DNA of 64,000 nucleotides. Source: a virus (Duplodnaviria > Heunggongvirae > Uroviricota > Caudoviricetes). Each line of letters opens with the position of its first letter. Position 1 is the stretch's first letter. Positions 6,680-12,384 of the stretch are shown one piece after another. Below the pieces are notes generated by a model. It was not told the origin of the DNA. It searched no databases and worked only from the letters and a program-made list of their open reading frames with translations. The stretch lies in IMG/VR virus record IMGVR_UViG_2897358383_000002. The stretch is one strand, 5' to 3'. Both the position numbers and the translations under genes were made by a program.

Positions 6680-6693
6680 TTTATTAGAGCAAT
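6680..6693 (-). promoter_or_regulatory. Late-promoter-like box (reverse-strand sense TTGCTCTAATAAAT, then ATTGATTTTTAAAAC)
   Basis: One of at least six copies of the same 14-mer in the window, each followed by an AT-rich -10-like element. Points leftward at the 28-aa peptide gene. Confidence 0.4.
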
Positions 6694-7199
6694 TATTGTT
6701 GATGGAGAAGCGCGTTTTCATACTCCCTGACCATTAACGTAAGCACGCCGTGCCTCCTGAAAACACGCGCCACTTCAATCTTATCTTCCAGCGCGAACGC
6801 GATTTTACTTAGACCAATTTTCTTAAGGAGATCAATCTTTGCTTGGCCGTCATTTCTGTCATCGGTGGCAGGACGCATAGATAGCAAAGGCTCAGCCCCG
6901 TTTGTTACGTACTTCCGCAGCCAGGCTCGTGTTTTATCCCTTGCGATCTCACAGCGCCCGGTTACAAACCAGACCGTGTAAACGTTAAATAACTGGCGCA
7001 CAATATCAATAACTGGAGTTATGGGAGTATCAGTGTCACAGGCGAGATTAAACTCGTTCCAGTCCTTTGTTAATGCACCTTTACCTGGTGGCGGAAGCAA
7101 ATGCAGTCTGTCTTCAGTTGCCTCTGATATTGTTCCATCAATATCAACTATGACGATATACGGACGTTCCTGGTGTGCGTGTTTATTGAAAATACTCAA
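6693..7199 (-). CDS. HAD-superfamily phosphatase-like protein
   Basis: 168 aa. DxDGT motif (VDIDGT) near the N-terminus, then TGR and K/D motifs in HAD order. TTG start with strong SD GAGGAGGG. Confidence 0.6.
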   Translation of the reverse strand: MSIFNKHAHQERPYIVIVDIDGTISEATEDRLHLLPPPGKGALTKDWNEFNLACDTDTPITPVIDIVRQLFNVYTVWFVTGRCEIARDKTRAWLRKYVTNGAEPLLSMRPATDDRNDGQAKIDLLKKIGLSKIAFALEDKIEVARVFRRHGVLTLMVREYENALLHQQ

Positions 7200-7271
7200 A
7201 TGCCCTCCTCATTGGACGAAAAAAATGCTGGTGGGCGCACTCCACCAGCATTAAAAGTGACACTGTAACTG

Positions 7272-8534
7272 TCAGCGAACATAAATAGTGCCGCCGTTCT
7301 CTTTTTCCCATGCATCGCTACGTGCATAGCAAACATCGAGAAGTCTTCTTGCCGCTGTTTCCTCTAAACCCAATTCGACAACCAACTGCTCATGACGGCG
7401 GGTAACCACATCAAACAGGGTATGCAGCCCTTTAGCTGCCAGATCATCAATAAATTCCGGTTCGAACGGCAGCTCTGCCTCTGCCAACATAACCTCTTGC
7501 GCCCACTCAACTCGACGGACCAGTTCCGGGCGGCGGCTTTCCATCTCTTTACAGATCAATTCATGGAAGAACTCTACCCAACCTTCCGGCTGGAACTCGC
7601 GGAAAATGGCCAACGGCTGGAAGTTTGGCATCAACCATTCGTTGATCCGGATATCAATGGCATAGCCCATGTCGCAGCAGAACTGATAAGCAAAGTCCAG
7701 CTTAGAAACGATATAAGGACGCTCGTTATTGAACTCTTTAGGCGATGAGATCCCATAAGCCAGGAGGCGCGGGAAGAAGGAGATTTGCCCTAACGTCGGA
7801 TGAAGTTTGCTTGCAGGGAAACGGCGCTCAGTAATGCCATACATTTCCTTCTTGAGCGTCGCAAATTTGGCATTCTCATTAACCAGCGCGGTAACCTCTG
7901 CTTTTTTATTAGCAAATGCCACGCGCGCTTCGCTTGCATCTTTAATAGTTTTTTTGAGCTGTTGGTTAAGGTCGGCGACCTGCTTACGCAGTTCCTGTCG
8001 CTCGCTTTTAGCTTTGTTATAGCGTTTCTCAAGGTTAAAAGGATCAAGTTTCATGATCTCTTTATATTGAGATTTTAGCGTTGAAATCTGTGAGTTCCGC
8101 AGTTCAACCATCGCGGTCATTTCATTGAGTTTTGTTTCCAGCTCAATGCTTATACGTTCGGCATTATCAGCACGCTGGTTGGCGTCATGCGTCGCATCGT
8201 CGATCGCGTCCTGTTGCTGGCGTTTCAAATGTTCAATTTGCAGCTGAAGCTCTTCAATTTCTTTACCCTTCAGACCGAGATCCAACTGCATATTTTCAGC
8301 TGCATCTACCAGGGAGTTATGGCTATCAGCTTCTGCGTTATAAACATCAATAAGCTGTGCGTGAAGCATCTCCGCTGACTGAACCGCATTATCAAAAAAA
8401 CGTGCTGTGAGGTCATCACAACTAACGCGGCGTTGCGCGGCCCGGATGTTCTGGATAATGGCCGGGATACCGGCATTCAGGACATCAGGGATAGATACAT
8501 TTTCGATTGATTGGTTTTGTGCTGAAGTGCTCAT
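7272..8534 (-). CDS. Hypothetical protein with long coiled-coil segment
   Basis: 420-aa ORF with heptad-rich E/K/Q/L region (about aa 60-230). Start overlaps the upstream gene stop. Confidence 0.65.
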   Translation of the reverse strand: MSTSAQNQSIENVSIPDVLNAGIPAIIQNIRAAQRRVSCDDLTARFFDNAVQSAEMLHAQLIDVYNAEADSHNSLVDAAENMQLDLGLKGKEIEELQLQIEHLKRQQQDAIDDATHDANQRADNAERISIELETKLNEMTAMVELRNSQISTLKSQYKEIMKLDPFNLEKRYNKAKSERQELRKQVADLNQQLKKTIKDASEARVAFANKKAEVTALVNENAKFATLKKEMYGITERRFPASKLHPTLGQISFFPRLLAYGISSPKEFNNERPYIVSKLDFAYQFCCDMGYAIDIRINEWLMPNFQPLAIFREFQPEGWVEFFHELICKEMESRRPELVRRVEWAQEVMLAEAELPFEPEFIDDLAAKGLHTLFDVVTRRHEQLVVELGLEETAARRLLDVCYARSDAWEKENGGTIYVR

Positions 8535-8535
8535 T

Positions 8536-8754
8536 TCAAAGTTCCGTATTAGCTTGTGCTTCGGTCATTTTTCCTAAGTATGAAGGTGGAAGGACTACGC
8601 AATTTGTATCCAGTCCCTCACCTATGGCAGCCTGTAAAATTCTGGCTAAGGTGAGTCTCTTGTTGCGATACCTGGTGATGACATGCCTGATACCGCCGGT
8701 CGGCGTAACAAAGGCGATCAGCCAGTAGTGATATTTCCGTCGGAATGGCCACAT
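8536..8754 (-). CDS. Hypothetical protein (72 aa)
   Basis: ATG at 8754 with AGGTG SD. Tightly packed with the downstream gene. Confidence 0.45.
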   Translation of the reverse strand: MWPFRRKYHYWLIAFVTPTGGIRHVITRYRNKRLTLARILQAAIGEGLDTNCVVLPPSYLGKMTEAQANTEL

Positions 8755-8776
8755 AGTGCACCTTGTAGATTGCTCT

Positions 8777-10834: not shown

Positions 10835-11361
10835 TGAATTGCACTGCTCCTACTTGCATTCAAAATATGTAAATCTGCGTGTTTTTTGCGGGTATCCAGG
10901 AACTGCTGTTGCCATTTTGAAATAGACACCTGCGTTGGATTCCGTAGTGCTTGAGGGTGCGCGCCATGCCAATGAAGGCCGTTTTGCAGAGAACAGTCAT
11001 AGCCGACTAATACCACTACTTCAGCCCCTGATTCAGCAGCCAGACTGATAGCCTGCGCGCCGCTATTTACCCCTTCCGCCGGTCCACAATATCGCCTGTA
11101 CTCCAACGAAAATGATTTCGCCGCCGCCAGGTTGGCTGTCACTTTGCGGAATCTCCCTCCCGGTATGGTGGATCCGTATTGCTTCCACCATGACAAATCA
11201 CCGGCGTATAAGGCATAAATGTCATCGAACATCTGCCAGGAATTGTTAACCGCGATGATTGAACAGCCAGTTTTTTCTATAGCAGCACAGTCCTCACGAG
11301 TGAGTGACGGACCGCTACCGACACAAAAAACAGTCCTAGTCGCCCTGGGTGGTATGTTCAT
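10732..11361 (-). CDS. Hypothetical protein, paralog A of a GSGPS-motif pair
   Basis: Start moved to the internal ATG at 11361 (MNIPPRATRTVFCVGSGPS...). The 3' end overlaps the start of paralog B by about 100 nt. Confidence 0.55.
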   Translation of the reverse strand: MNIPPRATRTVFCVGSGPSLTREDCAAIEKTGCSIIAVNNSWQMFDDIYALYAGDLSWWKQYGSTIPGGRFRKVTANLAAAKSFSLEYRRYCGPAEGVNSGAQAISLAAESGAEVVVLVGYDCSLQNGLHWHGAHPQALRNPTQVSISKWQQQFLDTRKKHADLHILNASRSSAIQCFPRINLEAVIALLSSAVAQAPQTLLRRAECRL

Positions 11362-11491
11362 TCTCAGCTGCAAATTCAGCCTCCAGGCGAGCATTCATTT
11401 CAGCGATTACCGGGTCCACTACAGCATCTGCTTCCTGTTCATTACGCGGCATGATCGATGCCAGCGATTCATAATTAGCCTTGGATGACAC
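11336..11491 (-). CDS. Small acidic hypothetical protein (51 aa, GTG start)
   Basis: GGGAG SD before GTG at 11491. Weak call. Confidence 0.25.
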   Translation of the reverse strand: MSSKANYESLASIMPRNEQEADAVVDPVIAEMNARLEAEFAAENEHTTQGD

Positions 11492-11557
11492 GATTATTCT
11501 CCCGATGTTAATGTGCGCTGTATCAAAGAACACATATGCACTAATTAATTTATTATT

Positions 11558-12136
11558 TCACGTAGTGTACAACCACTTGTCACCGTTCAATACATGCTCA
11601 ATAGCCTCACCCTTTTTAAGGCTCATGTATTCCAGGATGGCGGTTATCGCTTGTTCTGCACCATACGCAAGAACGACGTAGTAACCTTCCTCTCTAAGCC
11701 TGCGCATCCAGGCGATCTGCTCATGCGTCGGGGCTTTACCATTTGGTTCTTTAAGCTCAATTCGCATGCCGTGATAAATACCGCATGCTTTATCGAGACT
11801 CATGTCCGGATAACCTTTTTTCTGCCCTTCAGCCTTCATTTTCCCGGCGGTTGCTTTTGAACGTTTCCCTCCGTTAGGCGTTGCATGCAACAGCTCATAG
11901 ATGTCAGGGTGCTTGCGTTCGAAGTAATCAAAAATGAAAACCTGCTCGAAGTGCTCGCAATTTCCGTCGCGCAGGTCTGGGGTCTTTGCCAGTGCTGCAA
12001 GTGCCTTCGCATGTGGAGAAACTTCTGTTACCGGCGCAAGCGATAAGAATGGATCCTTTTTGGTTTTTGGCCTGGACTGCCCCTTATTTCTACGCTCACT
12101 AAAAGCCTGAAACTCTTCCTCAGTAAAGCGCAACAT
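11558..12136 (-). CDS. VRR-NUC domain nuclease-like protein
   Basis: 192 aa. C-terminal GYPDMSL...GMRIELKEPNGKAPTHEQIAWMRRLREEGYYVVLAYG fits the VRR-NUC (PD-(D/E)xK) pattern. Confidence 0.65.
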   Translation of the reverse strand: MLRFTEEEFQAFSERRNKGQSRPKTKKDPFLSLAPVTEVSPHAKALAALAKTPDLRDGNCEHFEQVFIFDYFERKHPDIYELLHATPNGGKRSKATAGKMKAEGQKKGYPDMSLDKACGIYHGMRIELKEPNGKAPTHEQIAWMRRLREEGYYVVLAYGAEQAITAILEYMSLKKGEAIEHVLNGDKWLYTT

Positions 12137-12138
12137 AA

Positions 12139-12384
12139 TCAGTCAAATCCTGCCGGTCGCATGCCATATTTACGCTGTTTTGCTGCCTGCTCTTCCCTGT
12201 GCCATTGCGCACACTCAGCGTCACAATAGATGCCTGATTCAATCGGTTCATTGCAGTAACGACACTTACCTGTAAATACCTGACTCACGACCTGTGCCTG
12301 CTTTCTGATGTTATCGATGGCCATGTCTTTGAGAGCTTCTAACTGATTCATGCTCAGCTCTGCATCATCAACACGTTCTGCCAA
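12139..12384 (-). CDS. C4 zinc-finger protein (TraR/DksA-like)
   Basis: CRYCNEPI...CDAECAQ motif. TTG start with GAGGAA SD, or the internal ATG at 12351. Confidence 0.55.
   Translation of the reverse strand: MAERVDDAELSMNQLEALKDMAIDNIRKQAQVVSQVFTGKCRYCNEPIESGIYCDAECAQWHREEQAAKQRKYGMRPAGFD

Follow-up and report, generated by a model that had tools for sequence, protein, structure and literature searches.

The closest described relatives of the locus analyzed here are the corresponding regions of the phage-plasmids P1 and P7. In the P1 record (GenBank AF234172, the Lobocka et al. 2004 annotation, which is the P1 annotation used throughout) the genes are named, in order, pmgL, pmgM, pmgN, pmgO, pmgP, ppp, pmgQ, pmgR, pmgS, and pap, and in P7 (AF503408) the same genes are upf81.0, upf81.2, hdmA-D, ppp, shtA/B, and pap, with pmg denoting a putative morphogenetic function, hdm head morphogenesis, and sht sheath. 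The DNA examined is a 64,000-nucleotide stretch (the window) of a tailed phage, IMG/VR virus record IMGVR_UViG_2897358383_000002, in which a block of minus-strand genes occupies positions 6693-12384. This block is, virtually beyond doubt, a P1-like phage-plasmid's pmgL-pap segment, which as a genomic feature is already known and long annotated. Within it, pmgO, pmgP, and pmgQ likely form a single glycan-transfer module, with ppp as an insertion.

Outside the P1-like phages, the nearest counterparts of PmgO and PmgP are the Maf flagellin glycosyltransferases, which have a DUF115/MptE-like fold and are related to the GT42 sialyltransferases (PDB 5mu5), and those of PmgQ are GT8 enzymes such as GlyE, the Skp1 alpha-galactosyltransferase, glycogenin, and LgtC. 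Glycosylation of virions is documented for actinobacteriophages, in which phage glycosyltransferases decorate capsid and tail proteins (cited in PMC11256854 and others). PmgO, PmgP, and PmgQ resemble these systems in being phage encoded, not essential for plaque formation, and tied to structural genes; they differ in that the actinobacteriophage enzymes belong to other families and act in Gram-positive/mycobacterial hosts. Literature searches on DUF115/MptE-like/Maf proteins in phages and on glycosylated phage virions returned no description of a PmgO/PmgP/PmgQ cassette.

The block is colinear with P1 at 98.22% ungapped identity over 5,840 nucleotides (nt), with 104 mismatches and zero indels, and megablast against 50,697 phage records gives 98.7% identity to P7 and 99.8% to vB_EcoM-673R5, with the complete stretch present (100% query coverage) in 19 P1-like phage records. 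One Escherichia coli plasmid is 100% identical to the block, and in PLSDB the block occurs in 799 plasmids, with at least 80% coverage in 526. Comparison among P1-like elements, which the original prediction had proposed, shows synteny to be kept in about 50 P1-like viral contigs; the one partial copy examined is an insertion sequence (IS) truncation of the block. The genes, their order, and their strand are those of P1 and P7, as are the promoter boxes and the operators for the C1 repressor (Op82, Op83, Op86a/b, and Op88). The genomes differ 3' of pap, where type I hsdMSR genes are found here, pmgT-humD in P1, and upf86.8-87.6 in P7. The minus-strand genes predicted from the letters alone are real and lie where they were placed, but ten are annotated rather than nine, the 51-amino-acid (aa) pmgN (11336-11491) being the one most likely omitted. 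They are conserved, long-annotated P1 genes, yet their functions are mostly not established, as had been expected for the majority of them; of the refuting condition named in the original prediction (conserved core P1 genes whose established functions are unrelated), half therefore holds. The four genes central to the argument are as follows.

pmgO (P7 hdmB), 10732..11394, minus strand: 220-aa MptE-like/Maf-like protein.
pmgP (P7 hdmC), 10208..10834, minus strand: 208-aa MptE-like/Maf-like Rossmann protein, paralog of PmgO.
ppp, 9534..10226, minus strand: 230-aa lambda-type PPP Ser/Thr protein phosphatase, between pmgP and pmgQ.
pmgQ (P7 hdmD), 8836..9537, minus strand: 233-aa GT8-fold retaining-type glycosyltransferase with a DxD motif (D79-L-D81) and an F-H208-G-K-P-R-P motif.

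The two proteins sharing a GSGPS motif, correctly picked out as paralogs from the start, are PmgO and PmgP. Direct BLASTP between them gives E=0.003; in a natural fusion protein, the PmgO half is matched by PmgP at E=8e-8, and this match together with the shared GSGPS establishes the paralogous pair as real; PmgP also carries NSA and GVD motifs. The final 34 codons of pmgO and the initial 34 of pmgP share the same DNA in different frames (103 nt, 10732-10834), and this overlap encodes the GSGPS nucleotide-binding loop of PmgP. When the fusion protein was aligned jointly with both families, MAFFT placed PmgO-like sequences on the PmgP half, which confirms the paralogy but is of no use for modeling the fusion, and separate alignments were used instead. 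Structures were predicted for PmgO and PmgQ, and the best structural match of PmgO is Maf, a protein glycosyltransferase. Pfam MptE-like is matched by 55 of the 58 PmgP-family members (best E=8e-9), and a precomputed PF01973 match is recorded for many relatives of PmgO. The PmgP family profile weakly matches Cst-II, Maf, and MptE, and the GxGPS, xxN, and NSG...GxD motifs of the MptE-like family align with motifs of Cst-II. PmgO and PmgP differ from Maf in being single-domain proteins of about 200 aa without the Maf flanking domains, in having about 16% identity to it, and in occurring as two paralogs or one fusion protein, in every case together with a GT8-like partner. They probably work as a pair. 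To our knowledge, E. coli K-12 makes neither pseudaminic nor legionaminic acid, so the donor for PmgO and PmgP must differ from that of Maf. A faint precomputed WaaZ_KDO_III match on the fusion protein (P0051) had suggested a Kdo transferase, and this lead was dropped when 0 of the 58 PmgP-family members matched; a CMP-Kdo donor is pure speculation.

A different function for the pair would be that of pyrophosphokinases like archaeal MptE or thiamine pyrophosphokinase, with PmgO and PmgP making a diphosphorylated small molecule or activated precursor, either for PmgQ or as a metabolite or signal, and not acting as glycosyltransferases. This is very improbable, as the family profiles rank Cst-II sialyltransferases above MptE and the MptE-like domain is persistently found next to, or fused with, a GT8 enzyme and O-methyltransferases of the sugar type.

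PmgQ, which had been called a possible DxD transferase, has a GT-A fold with an invariant DLD and is closest to GT8 structures by both fold and profile, at 13 to 17% identity to GlyE, Skp1 alpha-galactosyltransferase, glycogenin, and LgtC. Three of its top four GT8 structural matches (GlyE, the Skp1 enzyme, and glycogenin) glycosylate proteins. It is a compact form of 200 to 240 aa that differs from these enzymes in belonging to a large unnamed family of its own, with 5,457 representatives at 50% identity in a search of 1.84 billion representatives. PmgQ is predicted to be a metal-dependent retaining glycosyltransferase, probably using a UDP-sugar.

The original prediction listed the transferase and the paralog pair as miscellaneous members of the block, but comparative gene order indicates a single glycosyl-transfer cassette into which ppp has been inserted. 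By tblastn, pmgO, pmgP, and pmgQ are contiguous and without ppp at three loci: a Citrobacter rodentium prophage (L005), a contig from an unrelated phage (L006), and a P1-like element that is distant (L061). In L006 PmgO and PmgP are a single 376-aa protein (P0051), joined exactly at the point where the P1 genes overlap. Seven of the top 150 PmgQ-family proteins are clearly fused with an MptE-like domain, in the orders Q-P (P0164, P0183, P0190, P0217, and P0298), P-Q (P0250), and Q-Q-P (P0243), and other fusion partners are CmcI/rhamnosyl-O-methyltransferase, TylF, and generic S-adenosylmethionine methyltransferases. An MptE-like gene lies beside PmgQ in 40 of 82 non-P1-like loci, usually directly upstream, and further cassette genes code, by Pfam, for FkbM and Methyltransf_24 methyltransferases, TupA ATP-grasp, GT2, GT9-like, and GT-D enzymes. 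There is a good probability that PmgO, PmgP, and PmgQ are one glycan-transfer module, and they would be steps of a single pathway for assembling or attaching a glycan. DNA hypermodification was considered, prompted by the methyltransferases and by a PHROG "DNA methyltransferase" label on one of them (MT-b), and was rejected, since the partners are sugar-type methyltransferases together with the GT2, GT9-like, GT-D, and TupA enzymes; the gene content of the cassette is what a glycan-building pathway would have, not a DNA modification system. We know of no hypermodification of P1 DNA.

Ppp is the PPP-type Ser/Thr phosphatase that had been predicted, matching Pfam Metallophos at E=9e-16 (59.3 bits against a cut-off of 21.5), with GDLHG, GDLIDRG, and GNHE motifs at residues 27, 56, and 82. 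It also matches PHROG 246 (NinI-like, E=5e-113) and the NCBIfam PrpA/PrpB-like family (E=3e-81), and its identity to the lambda phosphatase is 64%, as stated in the P1 record. Ppp shares all PPP motifs with lambda NinI and with E. coli PrpA/PrpB but, unlike NinI, its gene sits in a glycosylation cassette and not in a nin region. The cassette contains ppp only in the P1 lineage of E. coli, Salmonella, and Pantoea. This gene is also all that is shared with phage D6, in which its neighbors are unrelated lambdoid genes. We read ppp as an insertion into the cassette and separable from it; the G+C content of the block is even (45-52%) and gives no signal, so this claim comes from comparative gene order only.

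The original P1 and P7 annotations imply a different role, in which the block genes are directly needed for making heads and tails. Tail/baseplate genes on one side and further late genes on the other do flank the block, a late promoter lies upstream of it, and pmgR is truly required for head-tail joining: deletion of P1 pmgR leaves heads and tails unjoined, and the defect is complemented in trans (Gonzales 2022, PMC9024508). However, in the same set of 29 single-gene P1 knockouts pmgR is the only essential gene of the block, and deletion of any of the others yields infectious virions with no plating defect and with antirestriction unchanged. For genes 88-103 the label "head structure and processing" is expressly rejected by Gonzales et al. 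(PMC9024508), and the block proteins are enzymes by fold. A genome-wide CRISPR interference (CRISPRi) screen likewise scores the genes, pap, pmgS, ppp, and pmgM among them, as nonessential in P1, with pmgN as the one exception, scored essential (efficiency of plating, 1.4e-2), in conflict with the deletion result (Piya 2023, PMC10695390); because knockdown of the downstream pmgO-pmgQ genes is harmless, simple polarity fails to explain the conflict. Nine of the ten block genes are dispensable for P1 plaque formation, and the morphogenetic role, taken strictly as a need for assembly, is already refuted for these nine by the published knockouts and is most improbable for the block as a whole. A nonessential, decorating role for some of these genes is a separate proposal, and is the one favored below.

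If PmgO, PmgP, and PmgQ transfer a glycan, the leading candidate for its acceptor is a virion protein, which would be modified in the cytoplasm late in infection. In 24 of the 82 non-P1 loci the cassette shares its strand with surrounding genes for portal, protease, major capsid, adaptor (Ad1), head-closure (Hc1), Neck1, tail terminator, and major tail proteins; structural genes lie on both sides of it in 16 loci, three different slots are occupied, and in these structural operons the PmgQ stop overlaps the start of the next neck gene. In P1 the cassette adjoins the head-completion gene pmgR and is downstream of the late promoter LPpmgL, but has its own C1-controlled promoter. A virion protein as acceptor is a tentative assignment, put at somewhat short of an even chance. 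Taken as a whole, a P1 block of four units with a PmgO/PmgP/PmgQ glycan cassette, and with a virion protein as the likeliest acceptor, is the best overall explanation, and we hold it with somewhat better than even confidence.

Several observations weigh against this explanation. The P1 PmgO and PmgP proteins score only 21 to 23 bits against Pfam MptE-like (DUF115, PF01973; PmgP, E=2.6e-4), below the cut-off of 34.6, and P1 PmgQ has no match to Pfam GT8 (PF01501), which matches its relatives weakly in 11 of 33 cases (best E=0.026, none reaching the threshold); PmgQ is GT8-like by fold and profile and not a curated GT8 member. Recognized structural neighbors are limited to the 24 of 82 loci, the P1 virion proteomics paper (PMC9024508) does not mention glycosylation, no glycosylated P1 virion protein is known to have been reported, and the lack of a plating defect on deletion of pmgO, pmgP, or pmgQ means that any modification is nonessential in the laboratory. 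Other observations fit instead a remodeling of the host surface glycan (lipopolysaccharide [LPS] core or O antigen), for example by masking the LPS core as receptor, which would keep progeny from being wasted on debris or already infected cells, as a lytic-cycle analogue of lysogenic conversion. PmgQ relatives without partners occur in cell surface glycan contexts, beside a Wzy_C O-antigen-ligase-family gene in Erwinia (L092) and beside a hexapeptide acyltransferase among tail fiber genes in a Salmonella prophage (L105). PmgQ copies also occur on chromosomes outside prophages (L007-L009), and in L005 and L006 the cassette comes after the lysis genes, a typical moron site. LgtC (GT8) and Cst-I/II (GT42), relatives of both folds, act on lipooligosaccharide, and P1 adsorbs to the LPS core. 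In a rough neighbor-joining tree P1 PmgQ is basal to both the virion-context and the envelope-context groups, so the tree is uninformative on this choice.

Remodeling of the cell surface nonetheless appears unlikely. A C1 operator (Op83) lies at the promoter of the pmgN-pmgQ unit, which is expected from its sequence to be silent in lysogens, and a transmembrane segment is predicted in none of the ten block proteins, nor is a flippase or ligase partner present; neither the expression from a repressed prophage nor the membrane partners of a lysogenic conversion module are thus predicted for the cassette. Late expression would leave little time for replacing outer membrane LPS, the best match of PmgO is to a protein glycosyltransferase, and in the 24 loci the cassette is embedded, with translational overlap and in three slots, in late head-neck-tail operons. 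Extending the virion protein proposal beyond P1, PmgO, PmgP, and PmgQ may be the P1 representatives of a very large uncharacterized phage glycosylation system, with a Maf-like pair or fusion, a compact GT8-like transferase, and often sugar O-methyltransferases, embedded in head-neck-tail operons of tailed phages and decorating their own virions, the recovered loci being mostly from Gram-negative hosts; this is possible but doubtful at present.

Two chromosomal occurrences of PmgQ homologs are of separate note. In Pantoea floridensis and relatives (L007-L009) a lone homolog with 49% identity lies between lpdA and acnB and is apparently a domesticated chromosomal copy. In Salmonella enterica (L102; CP191473, 4386-6717) a homolog with 37% identity lies beside FlhD/FlhC paralogs (Pfam FlhC, E=2e-74) with no recognizable prophage, a curious association given the resemblance of the usual PmgQ partners to Maf and flagellin glycosylation. 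A 387-aa open reading frame on a 7.3-kb metagenome contig (P0122) consists of PmgP residues 1-185 linked to a C-terminal portion of the P1 tail protein gp7, and is a deletion variant of a P1-like element or else an assembly artifact.

The remaining six genes of the block are as follows.

pmgL, 12139..12384, minus strand: 81-aa four-cysteine zinc-finger protein.
pmgM, 11558..12136, minus strand: 192-aa VRR-NUC (PD-(D/E)xK) nuclease.
pmgN (P7 hdmA), 11336..11491, minus strand: 51-aa acidic protein (PHROG 2350), first gene of the pmgN-pmgQ unit.
pmgR (P7 shtA), 8536..8754, minus strand: 72-aa essential head-completion/head-tail-joining factor (PHROG 3177).
pmgS (P7 shtB), 7272..8534, minus strand: 420-aa protein with a central coiled coil and an uncharacterized C-terminal domain (PHROG 1660, E=2e-195).
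pap, 6693..7199, minus strand: 168-aa stand-alone HAD phosphatase of the polynucleotide kinase-phosphatase (PNKP) type.

The block had been described as one tightly packed operon with several overlapping stops and starts. The spacing (in nt) is +2 for pmgL/pmgM, +66 for pmgM/pmgN, -59 for pmgN/pmgO, -103 for pmgO/pmgP, -19 for pmgP/ppp, -4 for ppp/pmgQ, +81 for pmgQ/pmgR, +1 for pmgR/pmgS, and +72 for pmgS/pap. Four junctions do overlap and two others (pmgL/pmgM and pmgR/pmgS) nearly abut, but there are three true intergenic gaps, at pmgM/pmgN, pmgQ/pmgR, and pmgS/pap. The control elements in and around the block, largely known from the P1 annotation, are listed from left to right.

Op88 (OpmgT), 6677..6693, minus strand: C1 operator abutting the pap stop, with one mismatch to the operator consensus and one to P1's Op88.
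Terminator, 7224..7252, minus strand: intrinsic, in the pmgS/pap gap, with an 11-bp stem including 6 GC pairs and a T-run, unchanged to the base in P1.
Op86b, 8769-8785, plus strand: C1 operator in the pmgQ/pmgR gap, identical to P1 (P1 annotation).
PpmgR, boxes at 8805-8810 and 8828-8833: promoter flanked by Op86a/Op86b.
Op86a, 8818-8834, minus strand: C1 operator in the pmgQ/pmgR gap, identical to P1 (P1 annotation).
Op83 (Oppp), 11535..11551, plus strand: C1 operator in the pmgM/pmgN gap, with one mismatch to P1's Op83 (P1 annotation).
PpmgN, 11564-11590: predicted promoter boxes just upstream of Op83, within the 3' end of pmgM.
Divergent control region shared with tail gene 26, 12442..12491: upstream of pmgL (P1 annotation and operator scan).
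Op82, 12442-12458: C1 operator within the divergent pmgL/gene 26 control region.
P1pmgL and P2pmgL, within 12442..12491: sigma-70 promoters.
LPpmgL, -10 at 12473-12478 and -22 box at 12483-12491: late promoter.

All five C1 operators (Op82, Op83, Op86a/b, and Op88) lie at their P1 positions with zero to one mismatch to P1, and a consensus scan of the window finds nine operator-like sites against 0.31 expected by chance. The additional matches, at 22293-22320 (an overlapping pair), 25826-25842, 41278-41294, and 42949-42965, fit the dispersed C1 regulon of P1. The single operon fails on the internal operators and promoters or terminator in the three gaps, and these elements divide the block into about four lytic-cycle units, each C1 repressed in the lysogen; that there are several transcription units and not one operon is highly probable. 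The block would then be a mosaic of pmgL-pmgM, pmgN-pmgO-pmgP-ppp-pmgQ, pmgR-pmgS, and pap, the last set apart from pmgR-pmgS by the terminator at 7224-7252. The P1 annotation and our prediction give no promoter for pap. The pmgN start codon is GTG, preceded by GGGAGA.

In the pmgL-pmgM unit, PmgM is the nuclease that had been recognized as VRR-NUC. It matches PDB 4qbl (psNUC) at E=1e-16 by phmmer over residues 77-179 and PHROG 5702 (Holliday junction resolvase) at E=1.4e-26, with the catalytic PD at residue 110 and ELK at 127, and scores 21.2 bits against Pfam VRR_NUC, slightly below the cut-off of 23.8. PmgM is like the stand-alone VRR-NUC Holliday junction resolvases (psNUC [4QBL], stNUC, and saNUC) in its VRR-NUC domain and PD...E-x-K motif, and differs from the psNUC type in an additional N-terminal extension of about 75 residues and in being dispensable in P1. 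psNUC is a dimeric Holliday junction resolvase, shown experimentally (Pennell et al. 2014, PMC4103454), and by homology PmgM is probably a resolvase of Holliday junctions or branched DNA that would most likely act before packaging. The zinc finger, also correctly predicted, is PmgL, with four cysteines (C41-x2-C44...C54-x3-C58; CxxC-x9-CxxxC) and a match to PHROG 54 (DksA-like zinc finger, E=1.7e-13); Pfam (including zf-dskA_traR) and PDB searches gave no significant match, and PmgL is possibly DksA/TraR-like.

In the pmgR-pmgS unit, the head-completion and head-tail-joining factor would be coexpressed with PmgS, the predicted coiled-coil protein, for which PDB, Pfam, NCBIfam, and PADLOC searches returned only coiled-coil-type matches (SMC, LmuB, and keratin). 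Pap, predicted as an HAD-like phosphatase, matches Pfam HAD_PNKP at E=2.4e-12 (47.6 bits against a cut-off of 27.6) with a DIDGT motif at residue 19, as well as PHROG 415/505 (polynucleotide kinase) and, weakly, the Pnkp1 structure 4xrp (E=5.5e-4). It has no kinase domain, the protein being only 168 aa and the Pfam, PHROG, and PDB matches being limited to the phosphatase part, and it is a candidate stand-alone PNKP-type 3'-phosphatase behind a terminator.

With these assignments, the proposal that the whole block is a single accessory operon, with its phosphatases and nuclease acting jointly in host takeover, nucleic acid repair, or anti-defense, can be weighed. Most of the genes are accessory in the sense of being dispensable for plaques; Pap, PmgM, and Ppp are kinds of enzyme that phages use in end healing, DNA processing, and countersignaling; and the block adjoins a variable region, here with a type I restriction-modification (R-M) system. 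A nucleic acid role is reasonable for PmgM and Pap. But pmgR is essential and acts in morphogenesis, three other genes make up a likely glycosylation module that has nothing to do with nucleic acids, ppp occurs by itself in phage D6 and is missing from the cassette elsewhere, and the four units are separately controlled, with a terminator ahead of pap. A defense or anti-defense role was rejected, as no block protein matches a PADLOC defense family, apart from coiled-coil noise between PmgS and LmuB, and the single deletions leave antirestriction as it was. The one-operon, single-system proposal is already largely refuted and is improbable.

The type I R-M locus (hsdM, hsdS, and hsdR) lies within positions 1-6650 of the window, with hsdR at 3311-6427 on the plus strand, followed 3' by a second strong terminator-like hairpin (6621-6644, plus strand) facing pap. 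From about 6503 the sequence is again homologous to P1, with the P1pmgT promoter boxes and Op88 retained beside the hsd locus; Op88 controls pmgT in P1, and here the hsd genes lie beyond it. The P1 record notes the same junction sequence 3' of the EcoDXXI and R124/3 hsd loci, a recurrence that marks the pap/Op88 boundary as a recurrent site of cargo exchange.

For P1 and its relatives, the new element is that pmgO, pmgP, and pmgQ are assigned to a proposed common glycosyl-transfer module, with ppp read as inserted into it, and annotation is tidied with PmgM as a probable junction resolvase and Pap as a phosphatase-only relative of PNKP. Two decades of "putative morphogenetic function" labels appear to have hidden a conserved and frequently fused glycosyl-transfer module, and the PmgQ family, with about 5,500 representatives, none of them characterized, has many members among capsid and neck genes. 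If the module glycosylates virions, this kind of modification would extend to phages of Gram-negative bacteria, with consequences for immune recognition, particle stability, and phage therapy design, and the existing P1 knockouts would make P1 a tractable model for a virion modification so far documented mainly in actinobacteriophages. If LPS is remodeled instead, the module would serve to mask receptors during the lytic cycle of P1, which uses the LPS core as its receptor.

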